From Octopus sinensis (lineage: Eukaryota), in NCBI RefSeq assembly GCF_006345805.1, contig NC_043017.1, positions 27,900,001 to 27,964,000 on the forward strand: a stretch of 64,000 nucleotides of DNA, in the 5' to 3' direction. The notes under the pieces were generated by a model. It did no database searches and was not told where the DNA came from. It was given only the letters and a program-made list of their open reading frames with translations. Positions 21,779 through 63,139 of the stretch are shown here, piece by piece. How positions within the stretch are numbered: position 1 is the stretch's first letter; every line of letters starts with the position of its first letter. A program made the translations under genes and the position numbers.

Positions 21779-22638
21779 ACAGAGTGACTCAGACATAGAG
21801 ATTGAGACAGACACTCTTGTAAAGAGAGGCATAGGTAGCTAGAGATATACATACATGTACACGCAAAACCATATATGCACACACACACATTATATATACA
21901 TACATACATACATACATATATTAATATATATATATATATACACAACACACACACACTAAACACATTTTTATACGCATCAGATCGTATCAACGTTTTATCT
22001 TTTATTGTTCTCTCATAATTGCAGTTTTGATAAAATATCGGCCATTTTGCGCATGAAAGATCTATAAATGTATATAATTTCAACTCCAGTATTAATACAC
22101 CATAATATATGGCAGCAATATACAGTTATATGCTTGATTTCCTTTTTAAAATAACAACACGCAAACGTGTTCAATGATTGTGAAATCGGCAGTCAGATCT
22201 TTATCTCGATATTCTAACATAATCGATCGGTAAAATGACGGCCATGATACGTTTGGTACAAGAGGGAATACGATATAGGTTGCATATATTATGGCAACCT
22301 ATATAATGAATTGGGGACAGATTAGTTTTCAATCAGTTAATTAAAAATATGTAACAATATATCAACTCATTCCATAACATCGCATTCTAGATAAAATTTG
22401 GAAAAAACCAAGCAAAGACAAAAAGTCATTTCCAATAAAAATAAAAAGTGTTCAGAAGGTTTGTCTGACAACGTTTGTGAATATATATGAATGTGTGCGT
22501 GAGTGTGTTTGTGTGTGTAAATATATATATATAGTTAATCCAAACAAGAAAACACAGGAAAAAGAGAAAAAAACACAGCAACGCAGGACGTGGAACAATT
22601 AAAATATTATTGACGCTCAGGAAAGAAGGGAAGGAGGA

Positions 22639-22671
22639 TTTAACGTTTCGAGCGGAGCTCTTCGTCGGAAA
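22639..22671 (-). ncRNA. Minimal type I hammerhead-like motif (HHR family A) in a ~210-bp (TA)n-embedded repeat at ~22535-22745
   Basis: Minus strand: ttt-CCGACGA-a-gagc tcc gctc-GAAA-cg-TT-aaa; related copies at 36998 and 57224. Confidence 0.55.
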
Positions 22672-22750
22672 CAAGGAGAGGGAAAGATCCAAAGAAGGGA
22701 AGACAGAGGAAAAAATATTTTTGTGCTGGTGGTGCTCAAGAGATCACATG

Positions 22751-22800
<50 letters not shown>

Positions 22801-23435
22801 GTGTGTGTGTATAAAAAAAGAGACAGAGTGGGGTGACAGACAGTCGGATGCAACTTCGAGAAGATATAGTATGCAGATTTTAAGTAAATTAATGTGCCTA
22901 TCCAAATATCATTGTTTTGAGAAATTTATATTCTTATATGGAAAGAGCTAAATTAATTAATCACATATTTTTGCCTCGCAGAATAATAGCCATATTAAAA
23001 CAAACAAAAAAAGCAAGAAAAAAACGAAAATAGAGAAAACAACCTAGAAAAATGAGGACAGTTTCAATGAAATTGTTTTGGAATAAACTTATAAAATTCA
23101 ATTATACCTAAATTAATAATTAATTTATGAAATAATTAATTACCAATTTAAGTATTAATACAATCGTGATACTAGGTCACCCTTTTATCTGTAAAATTCC
23201 ATGGGGATATCTAAATATAAATATCGTAGTGGTACTTTTTGTTGCCGTTGTTTCAACGTATATCATTCTATTTCAACAGAGCTGATAATAAGTAATTCAG
23301 GGCATGCCAAGGCCTGTGTATGTGACTTAGAAATATTGTATTCCGAGCGTAGCATGTACGCTTACTGTATGAATGTTCTTAAGTGTTTGACCGATCTTGC
23401 ATTTTTTTCTGTTTTATCGTATTTGTTGTTCTAGT

Positions 23436-24040
23436 AAGGCGGGGAGCTGGCTGAAACGTTAGCACGCCCGGCGAAATGTGTAGCCGTATTTTGTCTGCTG
23501 TTATGTTCTGAGTTGAAATTCCGCCGAGGTCGACTTTGTCTTTCATCCTTTCGAGCTCGATAAATTAAGTACCAGTTATGCACTGGCGTCGATATAATCG
23601 ACTTAATCCGCGTGTCTGTCCTTGTTTGTCCCCTCTGTGTTTAGTCCCTTGTGGGTAGTAAAGAAATAGGTATTTCGTCCGCCGCTGCGTTCTGAGTTCA
23701 AAATCCGCCGAGGTCGACTTTGCCTTTCATCCTTTTGGGGTCGATAAATTAAGTACCAGTTGCTCACTTGGCGTCGATATAATCGACTTAATCCGTTTGT
23801 CTGTCCTTGTCTGTCCCCTCTGTGTTTAGTCCCTGTGAGTAGTAAAGAAATAGGTATTTCGTCTGTCTTTATGTTTCTGAGTTGAAATTCCGCCGAGGTC
23901 GACTTTGCCTTTCGTCCTTTCGGGGTCGATAAATTAGTTACCAGTTACGCACTGGGGTCGATGTAATCAACTTAATCCGTTTGTCTGTCCTTGTTTGTCC
24001 CCTCTATGTTTAGCCCCTTGTGTGTAGTAAAGAAATAGGC
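23436..24040 (+). mobile_element. SINE family 2 tandem array (one head plus 3 body units)
   Basis: Unit junctions aaagaaata|gg(t/c)attt at 23669, 23853, 24038. Confidence 0.9.
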
Positions 24041-25284
24041 ATTTGTTGTTCTCATCGTAAAAATTTCCTTACAATAAGATTTTAAGTTCTTCAATTGTGA
24101 AACTCGAAAAGCTGGTTGTACATGAATGAGGTTACTTGTATTTTTATCTGGTATCATGACTGAGTTCGTTTGCTTATAAAAACCAACATTCATAATGAAT
24201 TACAAGTTTTCCTTCCACATCTGGACTGAAACCAAGCGAATTTCGTAACGAATACATTGAAACACGTACCGTGCAATAAACACTCTTATCCAGGAACTAC
24301 GTTTCCCTTTTATTTAATTTACTTGTTTCAGTCAAAAGACCAGTCTTGGACACCGGCTTGAAGGCTTTTGTCCAACAAATCTTTCTCAGTGTATATCTTT
24401 CATTTTTCAAACTGTTGTAATTATATCAAACACAGACACCGTTGAATTGGCTGGATATAGCTTGGTGTGAGAATTGCCGCCAGCTTTCTTGAAAGAGCAC
24501 ATAGACTCGGATAATCTACTAAGAGAACTCTTGCTTGACCCTCCAAAATTTCGTCCCATATATAGCTTTGGAATGGTTGATTTATCAAGCGCCATAAATC
24601 AAAATCTAAGTTCGCAGAACGATTGGAGTATATCACATCGTAGCCAATCAATCGTCACTGACTATTCGCTGACTTAATTTTAAAGTTTGAAATTTAAAAA
24701 TTTACTATAATAGCGAAAGTCATAGTTTAAAATATTATTAATCATACAGTTTTGTAAGGAAAATTTAGAATATTGCTCATTTAAAAATATATATGTATTC
24801 GTATGAATTTATCTCATACTATATTGGTTCGACTAAACGTTTAAATGCGGTGCTCCAGATAGCCACAGTCCAGTGACTGAAGCCAGTTAAACGTAAATAA
24901 GTAAATAAGACTGAACCCGCATGCATGTGGTTCAGAAGCAAGCTTCTTACCACACAGAAAACATGATTATTTTAAATAAAATCTTTTACCGTGTATACAA
25001 ATCACCATCTTCTTAATACTGATGTGTTCCAAATAAGAACTAGCATATTAAAATAATAAATAACATTTTATACATAAAAGTGCAGTTGTGTCTGTTTGAT
25101 TAAGAACTTTGCCTGCCATCCATGTACCCTTGGTACCAACCTTGTGCTCTTGCATTCAGTCTTGCAGAGCTGTACCTTGGTCAAATGGCTTCAATTACAG
25201 TGACGGGTAAACCGCTGATTTGTGAGCAGATTTGGTTGACGGAAAGTAAATGAAACCCGCTGTATAAACTTATAAGCATATATA

Positions 25285-25870
25285 CTCTGTTGCTTCTTTC
25301 ATTCATTTGACTGTGGCCATGCTGGAGCAACGCCTTTTTAGTCGAGAAAATCGACCGCAGGACCTATTTTGTCGGGCACTTTTGCCGGACCGCTAAGTTA
25401 CGGGGACCTAACCACACCAGCATCTGTCGTCAAGCGATGTTGCGGAGACAAGCACAGACACACAAACATATACGCACGCACGCACACACACACACATACA
25501 CACGCACACAAACACACACACATATATATATATATATACAATAAATAATATTAGGGTAATAAGAATTATAGAAATTATTATTACCAGTGGCCTAGCACAA
25601 AAAAATTAGTCAGTAGACTATATATTATTCATATAAACATCGTGTACATTAAAACACATTAAGATGCTTCCATCATAGGCTTTCCTAGGATGGAAGCATC
25701 TTAATGTACATGATATCTATATGAAGTTATATATATATATATATATATACATACATATGTACCACGAAGTTCTTTCAGTTTCCCTCTATCAAATCCACTC
25801 ACAAGGCTTTGGTCGGCCCGAGGCTATAATAGAAGACATTTGCCTAAAATGCCACACAGCGGTACACACC
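25285..25870 (-). mobile_element. SINE family 1 with a ~190-bp insertion in its internal microsatellite
   Basis: 3' half at 25285-25480 and 5' half at 25765-25870 on the minus strand. Confidence 0.8.
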
Positions 25871-26089
25871 ACCGACTAACAGCGGTTATTGGATCCTTTG
25901 CGGATTCGTAATTTTGCAATAGAATAAGTACAGGGCTTAACAATAAGTACTAAACTATTCGAGCGAATCGCCCAGTATATCTTTCAGTCCAATGAGTGAA
26001 ACGAGCAAAAGGTATAGTATGACCCTGTCTCATGGCAATCTGATAATTCATTCGATAAAACTAGAGTAAACTTTTAGAAGTAAGTTTAC

Positions 26090-26455
26090 GTGACAAGTAG
26101 CTTGCTTTCGAACCACGTAGTGCAGAGTTCAGTCCCACTGCGTGGCACCTAAAGCAAGTCTCTTCTACTATAGCCTCGGGCCGACCAAAGCTTTGTGAGT
26201 GCATTTGGCAGACGGAAACTGAAAAGAAGCCCATCGTATATGTATATATATATATATGTGTGTGTGTGTGTGCTTGCCCCCTCCCCAACATCTCTTCACA
26301 AACGATGTTCGTGTGTATACGTCCCCGTAACTTAGCGGTTCGGCAAAAGAGACCGATAGAATAAGTACTAGGCTTACAAAGAATAAGTCCTGGGGTCGAT
26401 TTGCTCGACTAAAAAGGCGGTGATCCAGTATGGCCACAGTCAAATGAATGAGTAA
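26090..26455 (+). mobile_element. SINE family 1
   Basis: Slightly 5'-truncated copy. Confidence 0.85.
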
Positions 26456-26585
26456 TAAATATGTATATAAACAAAACGAACATACAATCTACAATAGATA
26501 TACACAGTCTTGTATATGTCTCTCTCTCTTCTCTCCCTATATATATGTATAAATATATACTTATATATATATATATATATATATA

Positions 26586-26815
26586 CTAGCAGTATCCCGG
26601 CGTTGCTCGGATTTGTAGGGGAAATAACTATATAAGCATTTTTAGAGATGTAAAGTATAATAGCCATCTCAATATGGCTAACCACAAAGGGGTGGCGGTA
26701 CTGTAGCTATTTACGTTCTAGGATTTAATAATAAATTTTTAGAGAGTTACTTCCCTTATATATGCCAAAAATGCTATTAAAAATGGGGGAAAAATTGATG
26801 GTAAATTCTTTTAAA
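26586..26815 (-). mobile_element. Non-autonomous Helitron (6796 family), cut by the assembly gap
   Basis: actagcagtatcccggcgttgctcgg...gtataatagccatctcaatatggctaaccac matches the 6796 copy. Confidence 0.85.
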
Positions 26816-26915
26816 NNNNNNNNNNNNNNNNNNNNNNNNNNNNNNNNNNNNNNNNNNNNNNNNNNNNNNNNNNNNNNNNNNNNNNNNNNNNNNNNNNNNN
26901 NNNNNNNNNNNNNNN
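26816..26915. other. Assembly gap (100 N)
   Basis: Run of N. Confidence 1.
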
Positions 26916-27520
26916 TACTCACACATACAATAGAGTTTCACACAAATATATATATAAATATTTGTCTTGGTTAGCTTTCACCATTGGAAACTTAATAAAT
27001 GTTTCCTTTTCAGGACCTTGTAATATATAAATTCAACACTAAATATTTCGCATCTATTTATGCCCCTACTTAACAAATTGTATGCACCATCATATTGATT
27101 AATCTCCCCAAGCGTGCATCAGGTCTCTCACACGGAAAGATCTCATATTCATATTTCCAGGAGACCGTGTGACGCTCATGCCGCCGTTTGGTGGAACAGA
27201 GAGAAGATTATAAATCTGAAAGATATTGAAGTACTCACAGTAAATATCAGAATATACGAAGAAATACATACTTACTTATTAAATTACAACCTGCATGGAG
27301 AAAACGATATTAAAAAAAAAAAATCGATGAGGTTCATTCATAATAAGGTCCGGCAGATTTGAACTTGAAAATCCAATCTGGTTTCTCTTTCGCCTTTCGA
27401 AAACATCTGCTCGTATCAGCCAATGTTTTTCAACAAATTTTTTAACGTTGGGAGATTTTCAGTTGATGGTGTTTCGATCTAGTTTTGTCTCTTTTATTTC
27501 TGGATCACATGTTACATGAT

Positions 27521-27720
27521 AATTACCTCCATCAAGGAAGTAGGTTTTGTTTTCATTGGTGTTGGTTTGTCCGTCTGTCCGGCTGTATGTAGAATAACTG
27601 AAAAAGCCCTCAACGGTATTTGATGAAACTTGCAGACACTGTTGGTAATGACACGAGGAACATGTGATAAAATTTTAGTAGTGATCCTGGAATTTTTGTG
27701 GATTCTTGAAGGATTTTTCA
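27521..27720 (+). mobile_element. Possible Helentron-associated (HINE/DINE-1-like) 5' fragment
   Basis: attacctccatcaagg...gttttcattggtgttggtttgtccgtctgtcc...aacggtatttgatgaaacttg resembles the usual HINE start with a TCYG microsatellite; 3' end not seen. Confidence 0.45.
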
Positions 27721-29024
27721 TTTCTTATATTTACTTTATGAAGTATTACAATGTCATGTTCTTTTATTATCTCCCTTGAAAACACACCCTTTCCACGTAA
27801 CCTATGGCGGCGTTGCTGTTTAGAGACTGTTGATGATGACGATGGTCGAGATATGTATGGGAGGAGGATAAAATAGTATCGGTGGTTATAATGGCGACAG
27901 GAGAGGTGTGATGCTGAGGTGATGGTGGTAATAGTAGTATTGATAAGTGTTAGTTGTGTGATGGTGGTGATTGCAGTGGTTATATTGGTTGTCATGGTGA
28001 AATTGACTGTCAAGGTAACCGTCATGATAACATTGAACCTTTACATAAATAAATAACGTGAAATACACGAAGGGACGAACAAAAAGACAAACGGGTCATT
28101 CAAAGCCTTTGTTCTTCAGTCAGAAACTGATTCTTCATCGCGGATTTCGGCTGTTTAATTCTGAGATCCGCTCTGAATCAGCCAGCCACAGAAGGAAAGA
28201 ATGCAACGCAACAGAGACGAACATGAAACGAAAAAATCTTTTTTGGAGACAGTAACGGTTAAAAACATGGATGACACAGGCGCCCTACGGCTTTGAGACA
28301 AAAAGAGACAAAAACAATATCAGCAAGTGTGGAAAAATAATTACCTTTTCGGTGATGAGACACATGATGAACAAGCGGCCGATGGCAACGGAATGGCTGA
28401 GGCAGCAAGTCGCAAGAGGGTAAGAGAGAGAAGGGGTAAGAGAGAGAGGGGACCAAGGAGGGTGGAAGGCGAGGACAGAAGCAATGACCAAGAGAGAGAG
28501 GGAGAGAAGGAATCAGAGAAGAAGCAGTGACCAAGAGAGAGTGTGTGTGTGGGCGTGTGTACTCTGAGCCGGAGAATTAGAACTCGTTGGAGAGAACCAG
28601 CCATAGATTAAAGAGTATATGAACCACTGAGCGTGAAGAACCCTAGTTCTCCTTAGAGCTTCCTTATAAGTGTAGGAAAGCGTGTATATAAAGAAACCCT
28701 AGTGCTCCGCTAGTTTCATGTTTTTTGTCTGTTCGCTTGTCACTTTTCAATTTCTTCAGTCGTTGATCCAGTTGAATGGTGCACTTCAGTATGGTCATTA
28801 TTCACACGGAAATTATTTTCGCTATAAATCAATAAAGATTTAATAGCTTTTAAAGTTTGCAAATTTGGGGTAATTTTAGCCAATCGAAAGCCACGAACTG
28901 TTTCCAGAGTTTAAAAAAGCCAAACTGTTACCAAGATGCTTAACCAGGTAGCCAATTTTCGCTTATTAAATGCAGAAAAACACTTAAGGTAATAATACCT
29001 AAATAGGTCTTAAATCATGCACTG

Positions 29025-29275
29025 TTTTTGCCATAATCATTTGAATTCCCGAGTGTAGAAACATTTTATCAGAAGTCGAATATAAAAAGAGCTATGAAGG
29101 TTTTATATGGCGTATGTAAACCAGAATTCCACTAATATTTCATTTGCTTTTTCCATAATCATATGAATTCCCGTGTGTAGAAAAATTTTCTCAAAAGTCA
29201 AAAGAATATAAAAAGAGCTATGAGGGTTTATATGGCGAGCGTAAAGTAGAATCCCCTTGATGTTTCATTTGTTTA
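29025..29275. repeat. Tandem duplication, ~103-bp period
   Basis: ccataatcat(t/a)tgaattcccg(a/t)gtgtagaaa...gaatataaaaagagctatga occurs twice. Confidence 0.85.
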
Positions 29276-29635
29276 GAGTTGAGAACATATAAAGTTACAC
29301 CCCCAAAAGGACATCTTCCAAATCCGGTTTACTCACCGGGTAAAAATTATCAAACTTTAAACCTCTATAACATTTTTTAAAAAAATCAATAATAAATCCC
29401 TGAGCGTGGTATAAACAGTAGCTGCATGACATCGTGACGTATATTTGCTACCTAAATATGGCTAACCCTTAGGGGTTATGCTACTGTAGCTTGTAACCCT
29501 AGGAAAACATCTTCTCCAGCTGGCTATTGACACACTATCTGTGCCCTGTCAGCATTTTCAAAGGGAAAAGTATATATATATATATATTTATATTTTTGTA
29601 TTGAGAATCACTTCCTATCGCCAACCAGTGGTTGT

Positions 29636-29680
29636 CACACGCTGATGACGAGTCAACACCCAGAAACTCGGGTCTGTGTA
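29636..29680 (+). ncRNA. Type I hammerhead ribozyme motif (family B, copy 1)
   Basis: cacacg-CTGATGA-cgagtcaacaccca-GAAA-ctcggg-TC-tgtgt; predicted cleavage after C29674. Confidence 0.75.
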
Positions 29681-29990
29681 TGTAACGTCAGGCTGGAGAT
29701 GGGGAAGGTGAATTCCCTTTGCAAATACTGATAAAGCACAGACAGTGTTTCAATAACCAGCTGGAGGAGATGTCTTTTTAGGGCTACTACCTACAGTAGC
29801 ATCAACCACTAAGGGTTAGCCACATTTAGGTGACAAATATACTTCACGATTCCGTGCAGCTACTGTTCATACCTTGCTCAGAGATTTATTATTGCTTGTT
29901 TCCACTTTTTCGATATCAGTGACTTTTCATCACTGGTAAAAGTATCTATATATTTGCATTGATAAATATTTCCCTGCGCCAATCGGTTGT

Positions 29991-30035
29991 CACACGCTGA
30001 TGACGGATCAATACCCAGAAATTCGGGTCCGTGTG
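29991..30035 (+). ncRNA. Type I hammerhead ribozyme motif (family B, copy 2)
   Basis: cacacg-CTGATGA-cggatcaataccca-GAAA-ttcggg-TC-cgtgtg; perfect 6-bp stem I; predicted cleavage after C30029. Confidence 0.8.
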
Positions 30036-31340
30036 TATCACGTCAGACTAGAGATGGGAACGATGACTTTCCTTTGCAAATACTGATAGGACACACTTAT
30101 TGTGTCAATAGCCAGCTGGAGGAGATGCCTTGTTGGGGCTGCAAGCTACAGTAGCTTTAAGGGTTTACCACATTCAGGTGGCAGATATACTTCACGATTT
30201 AAAAAAAATCCTTTTCTGAAAAAAGTGAAGTAGTCCTTCAGATTCAGCGTGGAAAATTATATCAATAAACCAAATGCTAAAATTTCCACTGGTGCAGCTA
30301 ATCAGAAAAGTCCCCTGTTTGCTAGTCGTCAAAATCTGTCTTGCAAATATTTTTGTAGCTGAATGCGCTGAAAGTATACTTAGTGTCCATTCAGAACAAA
30401 TGCACGCACATGTATGTATGTGTGTGTGTGTGTGTGTACGTGCGTGTGAAGCCTTTAATTTCGTTAAAGGGAAACGTTTTTGAGCATATATATATATATA
30501 TATAAATGGCGGTGCCCCAGCATGGCCACAGCTCATAAGCTGAAACTGGAAAATCAAAATCAAAAATCAAAATTCATATTTATATATATATATATAAGAA
30601 CCCCTATTTTGCGGAAAGAACTCATGAATATGATCCACCCGGTGTCCCTGGATACTAGGGATTGAACTGTAATGATGCGATGAAAACGGACTATGATCCC
30701 AAGAAATATGTGATGTGTGGAAACGCGCGTAGTGATTCATTAAAATATGAATTTCATCTATAGATTATTATTATTATTATTATTATAACTATTATTACTA
30801 ATTCTACTACTACTACTTTATAGGTACGTATGTATGAGTGTATGTGTAAGCATGTATGTATACATGTATGTACGTATGTATAATCCTCTGATTATCTCAA
30901 GAACAAAATATAGAAATGGAAGTTTTACAATATAGACGGCAATATTACTACGACTGCAGGTATTGTTGTCACTGCTACTGATGCTGATGATGATGAGGAG
31001 GAGCATGTTGGTGGCGGTGAAGTTGTTGGTTTATTTTAGAGACCACACTGCTAATATAAGCTAATAATATACGCTCTGATATATTTGAACAATGCAACAA
31101 CACGTGTTGCTTTCGCTGTTCTCAGATTCAAAAACAATATATACCAACGGTATTGTCTTTCATGAAGAAAGAGATTTCAGCGACAAACAAGTCCAGATGG
31201 TAAACAAGCTTGTGAACAAGAGAATAGAGAGAAAACATGTGTGGCTTATCGTTTCGGTTGTATTAAAGCATTTTAGAGATGGAGAAAGGCAGGAAGAAAA
31301 AAGAAGTAATTGTTACGAGCGGGAACAAGTGATTGCAGAG

Positions 31341-31379
<39 letters not shown>

Positions 31380-31433
31380 TGTGCGTTTCTGTTTTTGTGT
31401 GCGCCCGTGTGCCTGTGGGTGTGTGATATATAG

Positions 31434-31664
31434 AAGGCGGTGAGCTGGCAGAAACGTTAGCACGCCGGGCGAAATGCGTTGCCGTATTTCGTCTGCCGTT
31501 ACGTTCTGAGTTCAAATTCCGCCGAGGTCGACTTTGCCTTTCATCCTTTCTGGGTCGATAAATTAAGTACCAGTTACGCACTGGGATCGATATAATCGAC
31601 TTAATCCGTTTGTCTGTCCTTGTTTGTCCCCTCTGTGTTTAGCCCCTTGTGGGTAGTAAAGAAA
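31434..31664 (+). mobile_element. SINE family 2
   Basis: Near-consensus full-length copy. Confidence 0.9.
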
Positions 31665-31796
31665 CAGATATATAGAAGTGCCTGTGCATGTGAGGCACAT
31701 ATATCTACATATATGTATGTGTGTTTGTGTCCATCTATAGGCATATGCACACACCCGCATATACATACACGTATATATACTGATAGATATACATTC

Positions 31797-31872
31797 ATTC
31801 ACATGGTTCTGGGTTGAGTCCCACTGCGTGGCACCTTGTAAGTGGATTTGGTAGATGGAAACTGAAAGACCG

Positions 31873-31965
<93 letters not shown>

Positions 31966-32624: not shown

Positions 32625-32658
<34 letters not shown>

Positions 32659-32708
32659 TTACAAAGAGAAAGTGTGTGTGAGAGATAGAGATATAGTATA
32701 TATGTGCG

Positions 32709-36923: not shown

Positions 36924-36971
<48 letters not shown>

Positions 36972-36997
36972 TCTATCCTTGTTTTTTTCTGTGTATC

Positions 36998-37031
36998 TTT
37001 CTGTGGAAGAGCGTAGGCTCGAAACGTAAAA
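36998..37031 (+). ncRNA. Degenerate minimal hammerhead motif (family A) in a (TA)n-embedded repeat at ~36969-37125
   Basis: ttt-CTGTGGA-a-gagc gtag gctc-GAAA-cg-TA-aaa; core deviates from CTGANGA. Confidence 0.45.
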
Positions 37032-37122
37032 TACTTTTTTCTATTCCTGAGCGCTATACTAATACATTTGTTTGTTTGTACTCCACCTGCTTTCGTCTTT
37101 TCTTTATATTCGTAAACTTTCC

Positions 37123-37157
<35 letters not shown>

Positions 37158-43585: not shown

Positions 43586-44095
43586 AGTAAACAAGTGTCA
43601 ACTTAGTGTGCTGGTTGTGGACAGCTGACACTTTCCTTTTATACCCAGTAAAATAAGCCGAGAAATTCAATCAAATAATAATAATAATGTAGCACTTTCT
43701 GTACAATGTCCGTGAAAATTTTGAGACGGCAATGAATATAAGTGCTCTTTCCCAAAATAAGAAAAAAAAACAATCGTAATCATAAGCATGCTCAGACGAG
43801 TATGGCCTGGGGCTAACCAGCAGAAATACAAACAATTCCAGTCATATTTCGTTTTTGGATTTGGTTTGCAAGATTCTTTATATGAGTTCGTGTGTTGAAG
43901 CATATTCTATTGTGTCTGGGGAGAGTCATTCTCTTTTAGTGCCTTATTATTTAACACAATCACCGGTAAAATTTTCACCGGTGAGCGTGTTAAATAATAA
44001 GGCAGTAAAAGAGAATGACTCTCCCCACACACAACAGAATTCCAGTCATGGTATGCACTAATAATCATATACGAGACGGACAAACTTTAAAATGC

Positions 44096-45578: not shown

Positions 45579-45639
45579 GACCTCAATATTATGTAAATAG
45601 AGGAAATTTATCTGTAAATTAATATGTGACAATAGCCAA

Positions 45640-45700
45640 GATAAAACTCTGAGTTTCGGATGCCGAAGTGGAGACCCACAACACCATCTCTTCGGTTACC
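45640..45700 (-). ncRNA. Type I hammerhead motif (family C) in a repeat starting at ~45578 next to (TA)n
   Basis: Minus strand: ggtaa-CCGAAGA-gatg[gtgttgtgggtctccacttcgg]catc-c-GAAA-ctc a gag-TT-ttatc. Confidence 0.65.
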
Positions 45701-45891
45701 TGGCCATCTGAAAAACGCTATGACAAAATACCGTTATATAAAGGGAAATTACTGTTATAATTCCGCTACTTATATAAATTAAGATTAAAAGTTCATAGTA
45801 AACACGTAAGCATGGCTACTCATACGCTCACATGTGCGTACGTATACGTGACTATGAAAACGTACACATCTTCACCCGCATTTTTCGCCAA

Positions 45892-45927
<36 letters not shown>

Positions 45928-52395: not shown

Positions 52396-52443
<48 letters not shown>

Positions 52444-53388: not shown

Positions 53389-54419
53389 TTTACCATCGAA
53401 TATAAGAACATGAATCATGTTATGCATCGAAAAGTTAAAGTAGTCGGCTCATCTTTCTGGGCCCCAATTCCACCGGGACTAACATTGTTTTGGTTCTCAT
53501 CCGAGTTGAAAAGATAGAGTACTTGTCAAATGTTTTTGTGTTTTGATCAATTTTCTAACTATAGTAATCAAGCCACGGAGCAAATTGTCTTTTTCTTACG
53601 CATAAGTTTCGAAAGACAAACTATGGCGATAGTAAAACTGAAATTGTTTGTCTGTAAAATTGTTTACACATAAAACCCCTTATATATTGCGTTGAAGAAA
53701 TATTACATGAACTTATCTGGTTCACGGGAAAAGAATAGGATCCCACTTTTTGAACGGCGGGAAAATATATATCCAAAATAGGAATCGTATGAAAACAAAT
53801 TTATGATGTGCAAAGGAGACAGTGGTGAACCTTGGACAGGATAAATGTTGCCCTCGTCTGAAATGAAATACCAGACGCCTTTCTACCGCATCACAATTGT
53901 GGATGTGATTGCTTCCTGCAGAACTGACGATGAATGCTAGTACAGGATGATATAACTACTAACTTATCCTGGTAACTATTATATGAAGTACTTCAAAACT
54001 GGATGTAATGCCTGGATAAAATATACGTTCTTCAAAGCCATTTGCTTGAAAGAAATCAATATCTGAACATGTATCCTCTATATTACAAAAGATTAAAATA
54101 CTTGGGTTACTCAAATGAAAGCTAGATACGATCCGAGCCGTTGATGTTTAAAGCTTAAATCTATAGAATTCCAGCAGAAATGTCCACATCAATAAGCATA
54201 TTTACCGTTTCCACCGCTCCAGAAAACATTATCAATGCAGGTGCTAGATCGATTGAATGTTGCGTCATATCCATTCGACGCATCCTACCAAAAAAGACAA
54301 ACGGCATTAAAATGCTGCGAGTGAAAATGTTTGCATATCTGAAGAATCTCGGTCTCTGAACAGAAACATCTCAGAAAGAATTTTCTGTGTGGCAACAAAG
54401 TATTCACAAAGAAAGGCCT

Positions 54420-55280
54420 CCCTGCGTATAAATAAATAAGTAAATAAATAAATATATATATACGCAGGAATGTTTATGTATATAATTATTTCTGAGTGCC
54501 TATATATACGTGTTAAATAATTGTATATATACATATATATACGCATGGATGTTTATGTATATAATTATATCTGAGGCGCAGGAGTGGCTGTGTGGCAAGT
54601 AGCTTGCTAACCAACCACATGGTTCCGGGTTCAGTCCCACTGCGTGGCATCTTGGGCAAGTGTCTTCTGCTATAGCCCCGGGCTGACCAATGCCTTGTGA
54701 GTGGATTTGGTAGACGGAAACTGAAAGAAGCCTGTCGTATATATGTGTATATCATATATTATATATATATATATATATAATATATATATATATATGTGTG
54801 GTGTGTGCGTCTGTGTTTATCCCCCTAGCATTGCTTGACAACCGATGCTGAGGTGTTTACGTCCCCGTCACTTAGCGGTTCGGCAAAAAGGGACCGATAG
54901 AATAAGTACTGGGCTTACAAAGAATAAGTCCGGGGTCGATTTGTTCGACTAAAGGCGGTACTCCAGCATGGCGCAGTCAAATGACTGAAACAAGTAAAAG
55001 AGTAAAAGAGAGTGCCTATATATACGTTATAAAATTGTATGTATATATATATATTATAATATATATACACGCATGGATGTTTATGTATATTATATTTCTG
55101 AGTGCCTATATATACGTGATAAATAATTGTGTGATATTATATATATAATATATATATATATTATATATATATTATATATATACATATATATATATACGCA
55201 TGATGCTTATGTATATAATTATTTCTGAGTGCCTATATATACATAATAAATAATTGTGTATATATATATATATATATATA
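54420..55280. repeat. ~80-110-bp minisatellite interrupted by a SINE
   Basis: ctgagtgcctatatatacg...acgcatggatgtttatgtatat units on both sides of the SINE. Confidence 0.8.
54575..55010 (+). mobile_element. SINE family 1
   Basis: Near-consensus copy. Confidence 0.9.
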
Positions 55281-55487
55281 CTGGATCCCAATGGAACATG
55301 AATTTATAAATATGTGTGTCAATATGATATAAAGCTTTTCAAAGACTGCTCAATGGAAGAACGCCAATAATATCTACAGGAGTTGTTGATTCGTGTCTCA
55401 CTGGAAGCCGTGAATATTTTAGCATCCGAAAGGATTTTTAAATACAAGTTAACATGTTGTTATTTATAGATTTATGCTTCAAAAGTA

Positions 55488-56049
55488 CAGGAGTTGGACA
55501 AAATAATGGAAACACCAAGCATCATAATTTGGGAATATGTATAAAACCCTCAGAAGCTTGTTTATTTTTACGTGTTTTGATATATTGTTAGGCTTGCTTA
55601 ATATGTTTTTGCTAAAATGTCTGTTTCTTTTCAGATATCGTTAGAAAAAGGTAATAAAAATTTATTAAAATTACATATCTATCCGACTTTCAAAGACGTC
55701 TGTTTGTTGGTGTTCGTATGGCAGGCATTAGTATAACGAAAACAGCCGAAATGTTTGGTGTTTCAAGAAGTACTATCTCGAAAGTAATGAGAGTCTTTGA
55801 GAAAGAGTGAAAAACCTCCTCGTCGAAACAAAACACCGGAAGAAAATCAAAACTTTCAGATAAGGACCGTTGGATTCTTACGCGAATTATTAGAAAGGAT
55901 CGCAAAAGTATTGCTCCCAAAATTACTGCAAAGCTTAATGTCTACCACGAGAGCTCAATTTCTGCAAAAGCTGTTCGCCAGGAGCTGCACAAAGCTGGAT
56001 TTCATGGGTGGGCTGCAATCGGAAAATCACTACTTTCAAAACAAACGTT
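55488..56049 (+). mobile_element. Tc1/mariner DNA transposon, left portion
   Basis: TA|CAGGAGTTGGACAAAATAATGGAAACACC Tc1-type left TIR followed by the transposase N-terminus; ends at a SINE. Confidence 0.85.
55670..56047 (+). pseudogene. Tc1 transposase N-terminal paired-like HTH region
   Basis: ITYLSDFQRRLFVGVRMAGISITKTAEMFGVSRSTISKVMRVFEKE*KTSSSKQNTGRKSKLSDKDRWILTRIIRKDRKSIAPKITAKLN...AVRQELHKAGFHGWAAIGKSLLS; presumed start reads ATT, stop at 55808-55810, no DDE domain. Confidence 0.9.
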
Positions 56050-56307
56050 TTGAACGTAGCGGCAGACGAAATACCTATTTCTTTATTACCCACAAGGGGC
56101 TAAACATAGAGGGGACAAACAAGGACAGACATAGGTATTAAGTCGATTACATCGACCCAGTGCGTAACTGGTACTTAATTTATCGACCCCGAAAGGATGA
56201 AAGGCAAAGTCGACCTCGGCAGAATTTGAACTCACAACGTAACGACAGAGGAAATACCGCTAGGCATGTCGCCCGGCGTGCTAACGTTCCTGCCACCCCG
56301 CCACCTT
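56050..56307 (-). mobile_element. SINE family 2 plus the start of a second unit
   Basis: Reverse complement; junction aaagaaata|ggtatttcgtctgccgctacgttc. Confidence 0.9.
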
Positions 56308-57223
56308 CAACATCACAATATTCGTTGCCAGTATAAAACAGAATAAGTTCTAAGAACAAACCTAAGAAAAATATCTCCCGATATATGAAATTGCATCCAT
56401 CTTCCGACCATGAATTTGTGCTCAAATATTACCTCATCGCCGTAACTCCCAATTGATTAAATAAATTACCAAGAAATGAATTCCTATGCAATGTTTACTA
56501 TAGTTCACCCCACCCCCCCCCACTATATTAAATGGTTCTAAAAGTTGTTGAATGTATCTTTCAGAGAAGTATTACAGATGTTCATTTTTGCGCAAAAGTT
56601 CAAAATAGATGAATTCTTGACGCCCATTCGTTCTATATTTATTGATAGCTTACAGGTCCCAGCTGACAAAAACAGAATATTTCCTAAGTGATGAATTTCC
56701 AATAAACAGAAATACGTTGATATAAAACCTCCATCAGTTGTGTTAAATTTATATCAAAACTAACTACATATATAAACTACTTCCTCTCCCGTATTCATTT
56801 ATATTTTGCATTTTAGAGACGTATATCTATGTGAAAAGATTTATATATTAGTTGAACTGAATATAAAGATTCACTATCTTATCTTATCTACTTACTCGTT
56901 GTCTTGGAATCCAATTAACACTTGACTAAACATTTTAATTTGGTAACAAACACTTACTTTTTATATTTTTTGTCACGATTCTCCTTAATATCAGTGACGT
57001 CATAGAAAACATAATTTCGATTCGAAAGACCTCCATTTACAATATGCGTGTGAATTCATATCTGAATACACAGACAACACTCCTACACACACACAGATAT
57101 AATGCATATTTGAATATATATATATATATATAGTCGCCATGATAGATCGTTCGCCACAACATACATTTTTTCTCTCCCTTTTTCTCTCTTTGTTTTTTTC
57201 TCTCCATGTTTTTTCCGTGTCCC

Positions 57224-57257
57224 TTTCTGTAGAAGAGCGCAGGCTCGAAACGTAAAA
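57224..57257 (+). ncRNA. Degenerate minimal hammerhead motif (family A) in a (TA)n-embedded repeat at ~57133-57348
   Basis: ttt-CTGTAGA-a-gagc gcag gctc-GAAA-cg-TA-aaa; downstream flank homologous to the 37.0-kb copy. Confidence 0.45.
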
Positions 57258-57385
57258 CACTTTTTCTATTCCTGAGCGTTTTACTAATACATCTGTTCGT
57301 ATTGTACACCACCTGTCTTCGTCTTTTGTTTTTTTCGTAAACTTTCCCTATATATATATATATATGACAATTATTGGGTAACCAT

Positions 57386-57446
57386 GATAAATCTCCGAGA
57401 TTCGGATGCCAAAGTGGAAATCCACGCCGCCATCTCTTCAGTTATC
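57386..57446 (-). ncRNA. Type I hammerhead motif (family C, copy 2; 15.1/16.1 pair swapped)
   Basis: Minus strand: gataa-CTGAAGA-gatg[gcggcgtggatttccactttgg]catc-c-GAAT-ctc g gag-AT-ttatc. Confidence 0.55.
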
Positions 57447-57560
57447 CGGCCATCGGAAAAATACTACAGATTAAATGTCACATATTAGATTTACAGAATA
57501 ATTCCTCTATTTCCATAATATCGAGGTCTCTTTCATTCTTTTATTGTCTTACCATTTTTA

Positions 57561-57601
<41 letters not shown>

Positions 57602-58339
57602 TCACACATACACTGTGTGTATGTGTATACGCGTGCTTGTGTTTGTGGTGTGTGTGCGTGTAAGTCTGTGCCTTTGTATGGATGTGCATTTATAAGTACA
57701 CTCCGTAACATGAACCCAAAGGGGACGCAGGTCATGCGAATAACCATAATTAGAAATAGGTGGAGTATTTTCCCCCCAAAGTGTTATCATTAACAAATGT
57801 TCACATATGTATATTGTGAAGAATTTGAAGCTCTGACTTCCCAGTCTATACAGTAAAAGAATATACGTAAAAATGTCGGCCGTTACCTGAATAAAGTGCA
57901 AAATTACATATGTTTAGCTGGCAGCAAATATATATACACACTCATAAAAATTACAACCTAGACGCACAAACACACACACATACCCACGCATATACACACG
58001 TACAATCACACGCACCGACACACACAAGCACGCATGTATACATAAATGAATGGGGCAATTTGTCATGTCGCGATGGAATAATAAATGTCAGTATTACATT
58101 TAACTACTCCATATGCCCACTGCTTTGTACATAATTAATTCGCCATACACATTAATATGGGAAGAGCGCAACTTTAATAAACATCTAAACGTAACACTCA
58201 CGACAAAACATTCTCATGCACATATATACACACAAGTTCTCCATAACATATATAACAATTTGTGGGTGTATACCATTTTGAAAATCCGTGCGTTGCTCTA
58301 TGGCCACTCTCTGTGTATATACATATATAATTATATATA

Positions 58340-58751
58340 TATATAATCATATCAGTGCGTGCGTGTATTTATGTGTATATATGTATATATATATTATATA
58401 TACATTATAATATATATATATATGTATATATATATTATATATACATTATAATATATATATATATATATTGTATATTATATATATATTATATATATATTGA
58501 TATATATCATCATATCAGTGTGTGCGTGTTATTTATCTGTATATATATATGTATATTATATATACATTATAATATATATAGATAATTTATATAAAATCAT
58601 ATCATTGTGTGCGTGTATTTATCTGTATATATATATATGTATATTATATATACATTATAATATATATATATATTTATATAAAATCATATCAGTGTGTGCG
58701 TGTATTTATCTGTATATATATGTATGTATATTATATATACATTATAATATA

Positions 58752-58790
<39 letters not shown>
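58340..58790. repeat. AT-rich minisatellite
   Basis: atcatatca(g/t)tg(t/c)g...gtatattatatatacattataat, about 4 units. Confidence 0.85.
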
Positions 58791-58792
<2 letters not shown>

Positions 58793-59142
58793 CCTTTTTG
58801 TAGCCTAGCATGTATGTATTTTCATATGCATGTACGTATATATGAAACGACATGTGGTCTAACGAGTTGTGTAATGAGACACAAGAAGTGAATGCAAAAT
58901 TCATAACTGATGGAATAAAGCCATAAAATAAAGCAATATGGCGCATACTTAGAAACATGCGCTGGCGGATATTTTGTCTAAATGTGTATATAATGGGATT
59001 TTATATTTCTGTTACTGTCTATATAGTATGTACTTGAAAGGGGTGCGTTTAGAACATAGATGTTTACGAGACTGCTTGCTGAAAGTAGTATCGTGTATAG
59101 AGAGGAACAGACATATTCATTTACATATGAATATATGCATGC

Positions 59143-59193
<51 letters not shown>

Positions 59194-59977
59194 CATATAA
59201 ATATGTACATGTATATATGTATGTATTTATATATCTATGTTTGTATGTATATATATATATATACACACACACAAAATATATGTATATGTACATTTTTATA
59301 TATATATCTATGTATGTATGTATATATATATATATATATACACACACACAAAATATATGTATATGTACATTTTCATATATATATATCTATGTATGTATGT
59401 ATAATATATATATATACACACACAAAATATATGTATATGTACATTTTTATATATATATATATATATATGTGTGTGTATATATATATATGTTGAGAGCGAA
59501 GAGAGGGAGAGACATAGAGAAAGATCGGTAGATGGATAGACAGATAGATAAATATGTAGATATATAGATATAGAGATAGAGAAAAGCACACGTACATATA
59601 TACATTCATACATATTTATTTTTATGTCTCTTCGTGTCACACTATGCATATGTGCGTGTGTAAGTATATACTCACGTATGCACACACATGCACGCACTCA
59701 CATAAATATATTCATTCATAGCCAAACACACTGAAGGTAAAGTATTTGATCTTTTGTTAAAGGGAATATCGATTCACTCATTACAAAACTGTCTCTAATT
59801 TCACTGAAAGTAATATTAACTGACGATGACTGTGAGAGAGAATTCTGCTTTCATATTACATTCCTGGTTCAGAGAATCATGGAATACCAGTGACATAAAT
59901 GAAATTTGAGAAACAGTTTGGGTAAAAGAAAAAAAAAAGCCAAAGATATATTTATAGTTAACTACACACGTGTGCAA

Positions 59978-60041
<64 letters not shown>

Positions 60042-60256
60042 TAACACTACACACACACACAACACATACAATCATGCATATATATATAATATATATAGAT
60101 AATATATATATATATTATATATATATATAGATAATTCTTCAGCGTAGTGCCCCATCGTGACCGCAGTGTAATCATTCGAACCTGCAAAAGATATATATGT
60201 GCACGTACAAACATACATACTTATATATAGATATGTATGTATCTCTCTCTCTCCTC

Positions 60257-60305
<49 letters not shown>

Positions 60306-61430
60306 ATATACATTTATATATGCAATTAAGTAGTCAATGAGCAGAAGTCACTCAATCTTAGCCTGCACGAGATGGGGTTTTGTAGGGATCCTACGAAACA
60401 TTAAGTTTTGCAATATAATAATGATAAAAATAATAATGATTATAATAATAATTGATCATATATCTGTGTCTATGTATGTGCATGTGTGTATATATGTATA
60501 TGTGCATGTGTGTATATATGTATATACGTGTGTGTGTATAAATGTGTGTGCGTGAATTTACGTATCTATGCATGCACCTAAGCATGCCCGTACCTAAACT
60601 CAGAACTATACATATGTATGGGTGTGTATGTGTGTGCATGTATTTGTGTATGTATGTATGTATATACGTACATTGCTATAAATACCCATACCAAAATTTG
60701 GATACATAGGAAGACACGTTCACACAACCTGATAGACACCCCCCCCCCACCCACACACACATATATGTATGTTTGCATGAACATATCTATTCATATTATT
60801 TATATGTGTATGTGTGTATTTGGGATTAAATGCATATATGATTGTATGTGTGTGTAGATAATTAATTTCGGCATCACTTGGAAATGTTTATGGAATTCTT
60901 AATCTGTAGCCCTGTCTAATTATTCCAGATGCTAGATCAGTCATTGCTACAAACTAGTAAAGCGAGATATCAATGACCCGGAAGCGGGGGTCAGGAGAGT
61001 TCTGCTCCTACGCTAGAACACTAATCATTTTGTGGTGTTTTGTGGTAGAAGCTAAACTGATGTATTATATCCAAGTACAGAAAATGCCTCCCAATCATAG
61101 TATAGAACCCACGATTTTATAATCTTAAAACCAGCAGCCTAACACATGTTATATGTAGTTTGAAAGGTGTTGACTTTTGTCTTCGTTTCCAATTTTCTGC
61201 TGATGAATCGCATATATGCGTTGATTTGATGGAGCAGACATATGTGTAACGATCCGGTTTCTATTTCCAAATTCACTTTCAAATTGTTGTGCATGTTTTG
61301 AGTATGATGGATTCTCTCTTTGCACTTGGCGATCGAATGTGTAGATTGTCTTCGGGTGTTTCGAATGGATGTGCGTGTGTGTTTCTGTGTGTTAGGTGCA
61401 TATATATATATATATATATATATACATACA

Positions 61431-61461
<31 letters not shown>

Positions 61462-62547
61462 GTGTGTGTGTGTATATATATGTGTGTGTGTATGTGTGTA
61501 CATATATATGTGTATTTATATATATATATGTGTTATATATATGTGATATATATATAAATATGATCTTATATATATATATGCATATATATATATATATATG
61601 CATATTTATATATGTATGTATGTATATATGTGTATATATATGTATGCATATATATATGTATGTATATATATATGTGTATATATATATATATGCATATATA
61701 TATGTGTATATATATGCATATATATATGTGCATATATATATATATGTCTGTATATATATATATATATATATATACACGAGAAATTTCAAAAGTGCGCAAA
61801 AGTAGAAAAAAAAAGAAAGGTTGGAAGAGACAAGCAGAGACAAGTGTGATGGTTATAGATAGGAAACAGTGAGTAAAAGGGAAAGATTGAGAAATAGAGA
61901 ATCTGGAATGGAGAATGGTTGGGAGAAATAAGTACAAAGAATTACATTTTATGAGAAAGTCACTGAGAAAAATAACAGAGAACCAATTGTGATATTTGTT
62001 AAATGAAAGAAGGAAATTAGCAGTTTAGCTAACGTAACGTGATATTCACTCCGTTGGATGATTTATGTTGAATTTCCATTCTACTAAAACGATTTAGCTG
62101 ACGCTGCACGAATGAATATACGCATGGCTTCCTTCAATCGTAAACCAGCGTTTCATTGGGTGTTCGATATTATTTGCAAGGGAGATTATCGGCCTGCTTT
62201 GCAATTCATAAAATATCTAGAGAAATCGCAGGCACTGCTGTGTGACTAAGATATTCGTTTCTCATGTACACAATCTCTTGCAAATGGAGAGATTCAATGA
62301 ATATTAATTAATTAATTAATTAATTAATCAATTAATTAATGAATCAATTGTAGGCGAGCTTAAAAATAATGCTTGATAGTTTCAAACTTAATAATAATAA
62401 ATTGATCTTTTATAATATATTTCTTAAACCAGTGTATCTTGGATAAACATATCACTATATGAGGTCTAAATATCCTCATAGTGACAAATAAAAACTAATA
62501 TATATATATACATATATATATACATACATACACAACACACATATGTA

Positions 62548-62864
62548 GATCCGACAATGGAACAGCCTGCTCGTGAATTTAACGTGTAAGTGACTGAGCA
62601 TTCCACGGACACGTTTACCCTTAACGTAGTTCTAGGGGAGATTCAGCGTGACAAGGCTGGCTCTTTGAAACACAGATACAACAGAAACAGGAAGAAAGAG
62701 TAAGAGAAAGTTGTGGTGAAAGAGTACAGCAGGTTGCGCCCCCTCCCATCGCTGGCGGATTCTCATGGAACTTTAAGTGTTTTCTCTCAATAAACGCTCA
62801 CAACGCCCGGTCTGGGTATTGAAACCGCGAGTCCGCCGTCCTAAACATTGGGCCATTGCTTCTC
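62548..62864 (-). mobile_element. tRNA(Arg)-like SINE family 4b (head shared with 53098, different 3' half)
   Basis: Minus strand: ggagaagcaatggcccaatgtttaggacggcggactcgcgg...gtttattgagagaaaacactt...cacaactttctcttactctttc, then a 3' domain unrelated to 4a. Confidence 0.7.
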
Positions 62865-62909
62865 CTCTCTCTCTCTTTCTCTTTCTGTATATATATATAT
62901 ATATATACC

Positions 62910-63032
62910 TTATTTAAAAGCAGCGGAAATTCAACAAAAGCTGTTACTCGGAGTTTCACGTTCCTGTCCGACGAACGGGAACGGGAAACTCCGAGTAACA
63001 GCTTTCGTTGAATTTCTGCTGCTTTTAAATAA
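62910..63032. repeat. 58-bp-arm inverted repeat (4 mismatches, 7-nt loop)
   Basis: 62910-62967 pairs with 62975-63032; loop is ccgacga. Confidence 0.95.
62964..63001 (+). ncRNA. Minimal type I hammerhead motif (family D)
   Basis: ctgt-CCGACGA-acg ggaa cgg-GAAA-ctc c gag-TA-acag; predicted cleavage after A62997 (GUA). Confidence 0.65.
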
Positions 63033-63139
63033 AGCATATTACTCTACTCCTGGTAATTGAGTACTCTTTTTTCCACCTTGTTTCACATTCATGTGTTTAC
63101 TCTGCTATAAATATATATATATATATATATATATACACG

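Follow-up and report, generated by a model that had tools for sequence, protein, structure and literature searches.

Hammerhead motifs in a TA-rich stretch of octopus DNA are probably for the most part 3' ends of Penelope-like elements

Most minimal hammerhead ribozymes are single motifs that stem from truncated Penelope-like elements (PLEs; PMC4209133). Hydra-clade PLEs, which include Hydra-1_Obim of Octopus bimaculoides, combine hammerheads with (TA)n targets, inversions and tails (Craig et al. 2021, PMC8557442). That PLE ends carry hammerheads, occur as truncated solo copies and in head-to-head inversions, bear tails and target (TA)n is all known in print (PMC4209133, PMC8557442). A second group of hammerhead carriers are the metazoan non-LTR retrozymes, units of 170-400 nt (350-390 bp in mussels) with one type I hammerhead, for which an origin as non-autonomous derivatives of PLEs has been proposed (Cervera and de la Pena 2020, PMC7229834; Li et al. 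2026 preprint). In addition, cargo that is mobilised by PLEs between their pseudo-LTRs has been described (Arkhipova et al. 2013, PMC3846280).

In a 64-kb stretch of Octopus sinensis DNA, called the window in the following, an earlier note had described eight minimal type I hammerhead motifs and had assigned them to four unrelated families of non-autonomous mini-elements. All eight motifs are present at the places named earlier, with their first core base (C3) at 22668 (-), 29642 (+), 29997 (+), 37001 (+), 45695 (-), 57227 (+), 57441 (-) and 62968 (+). All have the type I order and the core C3-N-G5-A6-N7-G8-A9 ... G12-A13-A14, A15.1-U16.1, H17, the deviations being U4C in the A1, C and D subfamilies, U15.1-A16.1 in the copy at 57441 only, and U at position 6 in family A. 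A relaxed hammerhead descriptor retrieved nine matches from the window, namely seven of the eight motifs and two unrelated ones (2743- and 44412-), in contrast to a mean of 0.47 and a maximum of 3 in 30 block-wise dinucleotide shuffles; the B copy at 29642 was missed because its stem II is decayed. The features, with the family and clade assignments that are argued below (L numbers denote genomic loci), are:

22535..22750, minus strand: copy of family A1, flanked by TA tracts, from the 3' end of a Neptune/Nematis-type PLE; 94% identical to the end of long copy L375
22638-22672, minus: A1 hammerhead, core CCGACGA, stem III ACGU, predicted cleavage site after GUU
29380..29567, minus: family B inverted, 5'-truncated arm without hammerhead; 84% inverted match to 29713-29901
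29585..29942, plus: family B, complete first unit (about 360 bp) of two in head-to-tail order; its hammerhead, 29636-29679, has a decayed stem II
29945..30200, plus: family B, second unit, 3'-truncated; hammerhead 29991-30035, core CUGAUGA
36969..37125, plus: copy of family A, embedded in (TA)n, from the 3' end of another Neptune/Nematis-type PLE; its long counterpart is L380 (89%)
36998-37031, plus: A hammerhead, U at core position 6
45579..45895, minus: family C copy, 3' end of a Hydra-clade PLE, with a 60-bp tail and 180 bp of 3' UTR; 85% to L369
45639-45701, minus: C hammerhead; the upstream part of L369 encodes an endonuclease
57133..57349, plus: family A copy; 89% to long copy L379; hammerhead 57224-57257
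57368..57460, minus: family C copy, hammerhead arm; hammerhead 57386-57446; shares a TA tract with the A copy
57476..57545, plus: inverted arm of family C, made up of 3' end and tail and facing the hammerhead arm head-to-head
62903..62961, minus: family D inverted arm, ends at the short 3' end
62962..63105, plus: copy of family D, from the 3' end of a Hydra-clade PLE; 90% identical to each of the two pseudo-LTRs of full-length L194
62964-63001, plus: D hammerhead, core CCGACGA, 2-bp stem II with GNRA loop, stem III ACUCCGAGU

The number of families had to be raised to five (A, A1, B, C and D), because the copy at 22639 has a parent of its own and resembles the two other A copies at only 74% over 80 nt. 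To call the families unrelated was too strong, as A and A1 have a common downstream block and B, C and D a common hammerhead type. The three head-to-head inversions that had been claimed were recovered in B (29380-29567), C (57476-57545 versus 57368-57460) and D (62903-63039). The 64-kb window contains no PLE reading frame and yielded no PLE or gag match, and its reading frames of at least 100 aa are low-complexity or SINE-derived. Among the Rfam matches listed for the window (best 150 of 400), nearly all of which are TA-repeat artefacts, there was no hammerhead family, and no Rfam hammerhead model matched family B or the parent of D.

We consider it very probable that six of the motifs represent the 3' ends, with hammerhead, of four longer PLE families, two of the Hydra clade and two of Neptune/Nematis type, likely left behind when a GIY-YIG nuclease nicked TA-rich DNA and reverse transcription stopped after 150-300 bases, and that the remaining two are part of a coding-free tandem unit of 370 bp, which is likely copied in trans by the same machinery. 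The six are not independent mini-elements but belong to autonomous PLE families, because A, A1, C and D continue upstream, through a 3' UTR of 0.9-2.9 kb, into reading frames for a reverse transcriptase (RT) and a GIY-YIG endonuclease; none of the four is a self-standing coding-free tandem unit of the retrozyme kind. The window copies of these families are 84-94% identical to long genomic copies. The proposed link to PLEs was right, and of the reading as non-autonomous elements only the part on family B stands.

For family A, a GIY-YIG domain was found upstream of the A end in L316, L320 and L334 (3/30 loci by tblastn, with a fourth by eye), and for A1 both RT and endonuclease precede the end in four of nine long loci (L372, L374, L375 and L376). 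The A1 long loci are 84-88% alike over 3.1-4.6 kb, and the A and A1 parents are 56-70% alike in protein; the long copies of both that were read are 5'-truncated or broken. After the RT, the parents have a CX2-5CxxC linker and a CCHH-type GIY-YIG domain (L372, L316, L320 and L334), for which the L372 frame gave a weak Pfam match (E 0.022). They share with Neptune/Nematis PLEs the CX4CxxC linker, the CCHH-type endonuclease and a minimal hammerhead whose stem III is ACGU and whose stem II is preceded by an extra base (PMC4209133), but differ from them by long low-complexity 3' UTRs, of about 0.9-1.1 kb in A and about 2.7-2.9 kb, ACAT-rich, in A1, and by U6 in family A. It counts against the truncation reading that most A1 copies of an even genomic sample belong to a subfamily other than those of the long parents seen.

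The parents of C and D have one frame of RT and C-terminal GIY-YIG endonuclease, in the translations of which we read RWK, DKT/DKS, a CxCX5C linker, CxxC and CxH, and no CCHH; D copies have DKT together with C-N-C/F-K-x-E-S-S-C, and the C parent has DKS. Hydra-clade PLEs have the same frame and motifs, as well as a 3' hammerhead with an ACUC-N-GAGU stem III, (TA)n targets, inverted arms and a tail. This placement rests on motifs read against PMC8557442, with likeness to the published alignment judged by eye; Pfam gave no usable match on the Hydra-type proteins. An endonuclease precedes the C end in 6/30 loci, and the D end is present in 27 of 30 loci retrieved with an endonuclease peptide (one of them the query's own locus). 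Open frames of 703-766 codons occur in six of nine D long loci, and three of the nine have the hammerhead-bearing D end on both sides of the frame, an arrangement that the earlier note had proposed to look for. The D parent is about 3.35 kb long with a 3' UTR of 1 kb, and the two pseudo-LTRs of L194 are 99% identical. Pseudo-LTRs with hammerhead, tandem and inverted copies, a tail and the (TA)n target were all found for the D/C parents (L191, L194 and L195). Hydra-1_Obim is of a different family, as by eye it differs from both parents in its hammerhead and N-terminus, and the tail is about 60-65 nt here, compared to the 30-40 nt described. Two other frames were rejected as parents because they end in other 3' sequences, a Hydra-like one beside a C copy (L152) and a Neptune-like one beside an A1 copy (L153).

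In the even sample of 800 kb, the five families together have one hammerhead copy per 22 kb, which extrapolates to roughly 100,000 hammerhead-bearing ends in the genome. The abundance noted earlier is thus real, but one motif per 8 kb exceeds the genome rate (one per 21.6 kb). The window has twice the TA-tract density of the even sample (28.8 versus 14.9 per 10 kb). That (TA)n tracts serve as landing sites is supported, as 18 of 25 unselected 3' ends meet a TA tract, compared to a background of 8.8%. In A, A1, C and D the 3' ends are fixed and meet TA, while the 5' ends vary. B, C and D each have two alternative 3' ends about 60-65 nt apart, which correspond to the PLE 'tail'.

This pattern would be explained if the GIY-YIG nuclease of the element nicks TA-rich DNA and the RT stops after 150-300 bases, so that the hammerhead-bearing 3' end is left. 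Judging from work on a lizard PLE (PMC11167929), reverse transcription would start inside the RNA, near the junction of pseudo-LTR and ORF, after a nick in AT-rich DNA. Head-to-head arms may arise from fold-back or from two-strand priming. As the palindromic stem III cannot form within a single molecule, the predicted cleavage would require a pair of copies, for instance within a tandem transcript, and a solo copy would be an inert passenger.

In the even sample, the 5' ends of A and A1 show no smooth decay but cluster at 50-100 nt upstream of the core: by eye, they lie within about 25 nt in 12 of 17 A copies and within about 15 nt in 8 of 10 A1 copies. This counts against plain truncation, because a short template that is re-copied would give the same pattern. 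It is conceivable, although rather unlikely, that the short A and A1 copies are themselves sources, i.e., that an internal promoter 70-100 nt upstream of the core drives transcription of solo pseudo-LTRs, which stay uncleaved as monomers and are re-copied in trans like SINEs. Short copies do outnumber long ones by far, and pseudo-LTRs are enough for mobilisation in trans (PMC3846280). However, such bunching would equally result from an RT pause site, the A ends extend from -4 to positions beyond -900, the C and D ends and the starts of the upstream D pseudo-LTRs are ragged, and no subfamily without a long member has been demonstrated. Such sources would resemble the mini-elements proposed earlier, but be derived from, and identical to, a PLE end. 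A fixed transcription start for D was also considered and rejected, as the upstream pseudo-LTR starts differ.

As the earlier note had predicted for genuine ribozymes, core and stems are better conserved than the flanks among source lineages: common variants were found at 0/37 core, 4/83 stem (all four in B) and 65/572 flank positions (Fisher p = 0.007, with columns that are not independent). Stems I and II pair in the tallies, although stem II of D has 2-3 bp and stem I of A 3 bp. Stem III has a computed self-duplex energy of -1.7 to -9.7 kcal/mol and forms no hairpin. Strict compensatory changes within families are rare, with few double changes, mostly in B. Support for the structure comes from the stems, which differ wholly between families, and from the published Hydra table, in which stem I, stem III and cleavage site of a coral Hydra element equal those of D.

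Family A has U at core position 6 in 90/93 copies. In analogy to the A6C change (PMC3088659), this A6U is expected to lower ribozyme activity. It is unlikely, but deserves to be weighed, that the motifs of these copies are decayed, non-functional relics and that the core of family A is dead even in the source element. Besides A6U, it speaks for such decay that core plus stems are intact in only part of the rows (8/49 B, 41/78 C, 52/88 D, 62/93 A and 50/75 A1), that a lizard PLE inserted in vitro without the need of hammerhead cleavage (PMC11167929), and that eight of nine Xenopus dimers remained uncleaved (bioRxiv 10.64898/2026.07.22.740005). Against it, 13,318 copies of A have all four bases at position 7 and are exact at the other 26 bases, and the variants that define subfamilies spare core and stems; this suggests that the source elements are under selection.

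Family B is a coding-free unit of about 370 bp in head-to-tail repeats, mostly short runs, with one type I hammerhead in each unit. Among the five families, only B fits the reading as a non-autonomous, retrozyme-like element. Like retrozymes, B is a coding-free tandem unit with one type I hammerhead; unlike them, its hammerhead is of the minimal PLE type, and it mostly forms one to three units with inversions and TA ends, not long arrays. The motif is not a canonical hammerhead with loop 1-loop 2 contacts, and mussel retrozymes, too, lack most of these contacts (PMC7229834). Retrozymes are also marked by abundant circular RNA of monomer size; for B, no sequencing run on record as RNA was listed, and contigs from four runs of two studies, in which strand, ends and circles are not visible, cover B-like sequence and are only possibly of RNA origin. 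Since B shares the two-end pattern and a hammerhead of Hydra type, with a palindrome of 8-9 nt and an additional base ahead of GAA, its helper would be a Hydra-clade element. That B is instead the pseudo-LTR of an autonomous PLE that the search did not reach appears improbable. Admittedly, 30 search loci plus by-catch were examined of an estimated 14,000 or so genome copies, and long copies are rare in other families too (3/30 and 6/30). However, a B unit lies directly after the end of another B unit, and not after a UTR, in 19/30 loci (and in 4/6 unselected full-start copies), no PLE frame is upstream in the B loci read, and the related unit B2 repeats at a period of 365 bp.

B2, which lies outside the window, is a B-related hammerhead unit with one to three gag/ORF1-like genes, diverged tandem copies of a repeated transposon ORF1-like gene, ahead of the hammerhead end; its core has the variant U3-A8, and the four loci read contain no RT. 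It is comparable to PLE-mobilised cargo, to ORF1-only 'HAL1' elements and to Chlamys-2_cBra, which has a gag-like ORF1 but, unlike B2, also its own RT. No B-type end was found in the vicinity of gag-like loci that are more distant (four to six of them), and the L383 array is built of a unit that lacks a hammerhead. We tentatively propose, at somewhat less than even confidence, that B and B2 belong to one lineage of hammerhead units in octopus, which are non-autonomous and make use of the enzymes of Hydra-clade PLEs. B2 would be a protein-coding retrozyme that has acquired an RNA-binding gene of ORF1/gag-like type from a different class of retroelements, has spread it in one to three diverged copies at a time without an RT, and possibly packages or chaperones its own weak U3-A8 ribozyme RNA.

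Finally, chance matches in low-complexity DNA are refuted as a source of the motifs, despite the relaxed descriptor, the two of nine window matches outside the families and the lack of an Rfam hammerhead match, by the shuffle controls, by the even sample (33 matches versus 2-3 in shuffles), by the exact family A copies, by the repetition of the families and by the agreement of D with the coral element.

The eight motifs are little new in kind and represent published PLE biology at very high density. Judged against published descriptions, the five families themselves, the fixed A6U core of family A and the gag-bearing B2 unit appear to be new. Family A, with tens of thousands of copies that have U6, provides a natural experiment on whether cleavage is required of PLE hammerheads. 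In the B/B2 lineage, a retrozyme-like unit occurs together with its likely helpers and with a form that has gag-like cargo, which bears on the origin of retrozymes from PLEs and on how non-autonomous elements gain proteins. Many short repeats that octopus annotations list as 'unclassified SINE' may be ends of PLEs.

All eight hammerhead motifs reported in the earlier note were found on inspection of the window, which has a G+C content of about 34% and is dense in microsatellites. A scan with a relaxed minimal-hammerhead descriptor yielded nine matches, compared to a mean of 0.47 and a maximum of three in 30 shuffled windows. Seven matches lie at the sites already named; the eighth motif, the family B copy at 29642, escaped detection owing to a decayed stem II. 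The two additional matches, at 2743 and 44412 on the reverse strand, fall outside all families and are probably due to chance. The three proposed head-to-head inversions were present on sequence comparison. The division into four families had to be revised: identity within families is 79-89%, and the copy at 22639, formerly grouped with A, is over an 80-nt stretch only 74% alike to the remaining A copies and was therefore set apart as a fifth family, A1. The observation of the motifs is thus confirmed, and its interpretation as a dense population of non-autonomous ribozyme retroelements landing in TA microsatellites is partly supported. Further features of the window are the following.

Features of the window
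6857-6914 and 26650-26709: old short pieces of a B-like unit, without a hammerhead
17427-18040 and 23486-24044: SINE-like unit of 184-185 bp, about three tandem copies each
36998-37031 and 57224-57257: family A hammerheads with U6
43904-44040: near-perfect 136-bp inverted repeat, which may be another head-to-head insertion (a MIR4208 match was discarded as a hairpin artefact)
57133-57563: ends of different Penelope-like element (PLE) families stacked in one TA tract, as also at the genomic loci L126, L153, L183 and L344

The abundant SINEs resemble those of octopuses, which, together with the Octopus bimaculoides homolog described below, suggests an octopus as the source.

Sequence conservation was analyzed in alignments made independently of the descriptor, with 64-97 distinct rows per family, query-selected loci among them. 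Common variants (minor base at least 15%, CpG sites excluded) were found at 0 of 37 invariant core, four of 83 stem (all in B) and 65 of 572 flank positions, so that core and stems are kept over the flanks (Fisher p = 0.007, with columns that are not independent). Variation falls at tolerant sites: U4/C4, position 7, loop II (GGAA/GCAA) and the middle of stem III. Few strict double changes occur within families. In family A, 90 of 93 rows carry U6, and core position 7 shows all four bases. A natural A6C variant is active but slow, and U4C is tolerated in vivo (PMC3088659); our literature search, which is weak evidence on this point, returned no report of A6U in natural hammerheads. Stem III is unable to fold alone, with computed self-duplex energies of -1.7 to -9.7 kcal/mol, and the dimer activity of minimal hammerheads has been described as low (Cervera and de la Pena, 2014; PMC4209133). 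Stem I, stem III and the cleavage site of D are identical to those of the coral element Hydra-2_aMil. Judged from sequence, the hammerheads of all five families are predicted ribozymes.

The anticipated link to PLEs was found for A, A1, C and D, with RT/GIY-YIG coding sequences upstream in long genomic copies; the 64-kb window itself contains no PLE frame. For D, a GIY-YIG C-terminus lies 1.1 kb upstream of the hammerhead at locus L115, and 27 of 30 loci found with this peptide (one being L115 itself) carry a D end. Among nine long D loci, picked for long open frames, six have 703-766 open codons and three have a hammerhead flanking the frame on both sides. In L194, identity between the two pseudo-LTRs is 99%; the window copy of D is 90% like them. 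The D-parent protein contains RWK, DKT, a CxCX5C linker (one Cys substituted in several copies), CxxC and CxH, the Hydra signature of Craig et al. (2021; PMC8557442), and has 1946 relatives in public sets, nearly all unnamed. Members of a young D subfamily (L191-L195, L199) combine the canonical core CUGAUGA with open frames of 700 codons, and this subfamily may have been active recently. Walking upstream from window positions 45715-45895 revealed a Hydra-type endonuclease for C in six of 30 loci, and in two further loci the tail runs into an ORF start; a full, broken frame at L381 is 49% identical to the D protein. Hydra-1_Obim also bears a hammerhead (PMC8557442), but is, compared by eye, unlike either Hydra parent described here (C and D). 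With the upstream UTR of A as query, a CCHH-type GIY-YIG with a CX4CxxC linker was found in three of 30 loci, and a fourth by eye. For A1, no such endonuclease was present within 1.5 kb upstream in any of 30 loci, and four of nine longer stretches contained one; similarity between these four long copies is 84-88% over 3.1-4.6 kb.

A, A1, C and D have a variable 5' end and a fixed 3' end running into TA. Among unselected A and A1 copies that extend to the 3' end, 18 of 25 abut a TA tract by a strict test, compared to 8.8% of random positions, and most of the remaining seven, inspected by eye, stop at a shorter TATA. B, C and D each have two alternative 3' ends about 60-65 nt apart, and the intervening stretch is the PLE 'tail' (PMC8557442, PMC3846280). 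(TA)n targeting, inversions and tails have been described for the Hydra clade (PMC8557442). In the mechanism we favour, PLE proteins would carry out target-primed reverse transcription at TA-rich nicks, starting internally near the pseudo-LTR/ORF junction and terminating early. We infer nick preference and internal start by analogy with the lizard Poseidon element, for which both were demonstrated and for which hammerhead cleavage is protein-assisted and dispensable for insertion in vitro (PMC11167929). Because the 5' ends of A and A1 cluster 50-100 nt before the core, and because a subfamily with no long form among the loci read accounts for most A1 copies in the sample, solo A/A1 pseudo-LTRs might be re-copied in trans, which we consider possible, if rather doubtful.

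Searches of the genome yielded at least 1029 (A), 1623 (A1), 3469 (B), 2067 (C) and 1825 (D) first-look candidates, of which 40 per family were scored and 30 loci fetched. In an even sample of 80 evenly spaced 10-kb stretches (799,600 bases), profile searches found 37 non-redundant copies (17 A, 11 A1, four B, three C, two D), or one per 21.6 kb. Extrapolated to the 2.72-Gb genome, this amounts to about 125,000 copies, which may be a third too high because six exact 27-nt family A motifs in the sample predicted about 20,000, versus 13,318 counted genome-wide (reversed control: 0). The descriptor alone gave 33 matches in the sample, versus 2-3 in five shuffles. In the fetched loci it also turned up about ten additional hammerhead families, several of which have long insertions in stem II (L152:500-3000, L191, L219, L234, L248, L174, L315 and others); the L152 hammerhead is the end of a third Hydra-like element. 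Metazoan genomes have been reported to contain thousands of minimal hammerheads each, mostly single motifs from truncated PLEs, with some inverted pairs (PMC4209133). A 2026 repeat annotation of O. vulgaris lists 31 recently active PLE families, and its accessible text nowhere mentions ribozymes (PMC13282606).

Family B is older, since only eight of 49 rows hold an intact core and stems. A full unit is directly preceded by another unit's end in 19 of 30 search loci, although the query favours full units, and in four of six by-catch copies reaching the unit start; no RT frame was noticed upstream of B units. The hammerhead is of the Hydra type tabulated in the supplement of PMC8557442, and the unit has the size of mussel retrozymes (PMC7229834). 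B fits a candidate non-autonomous, retrozyme-like unit; according to the argument of a 2026 preprint (10.64898/2026.07.22.740005), units of this kind originated from the pseudo-LTRs of PLEs.

A related family outside the window, B2, is 63-65% alike to B over about 150 nt and has a U3-A8 core, a swap already found in nature (PMC4209133, PMC3088659). The short form of B2 is a unit repeated in tandem every 365 bp; the long form has gag/ORF1-like genes, which were also found in separate arrays.

Loci with gag/ORF1-like genes (genome G000)
L374:7221-9385 (C9), L384 (C19), L385 (C1) and L386 (C16): B2 long form with gag/ORF1-like genes
L383 (C5:62291301-62296500): array of 1.7-kb units, each with one 440-aa ORF1-like protein with a CCHC knuckle

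All four long-form loci, picked as closest gag matches, lack a PLE RT among the one to three gag/ORF1-like genes that immediately precede the B2 hammerhead end; in L385 and L386, a second B2 end is present upstream of these genes. The gag-B2 junction was spanned by 20 of the best 40 matches, giving at least 20 junction loci, and coordinate comparison places a listed gag match immediately upstream of 14 of these 20. Features of the gag-like protein (440 aa) include a CCHC knuckle (Pfam E 0.015, below cut-off) and likeness to ZCCHC3, and the sole homolog found was an Octopus bimaculoides entry. Among the papers listed in our literature search, none described a gag/ORF1-carrying hammerhead element without an RT. 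Capture of cargo between pseudo-LTRs is known for PLEs (PMC3846280). Genes of this family also occur in many places within 1.7-kb units that are nearly identical and arrayed head to tail, with neither RT nor hammerhead in the unit, and therefore the gag-bearing form of B2 likely arose via capture of an ORF1-only element.
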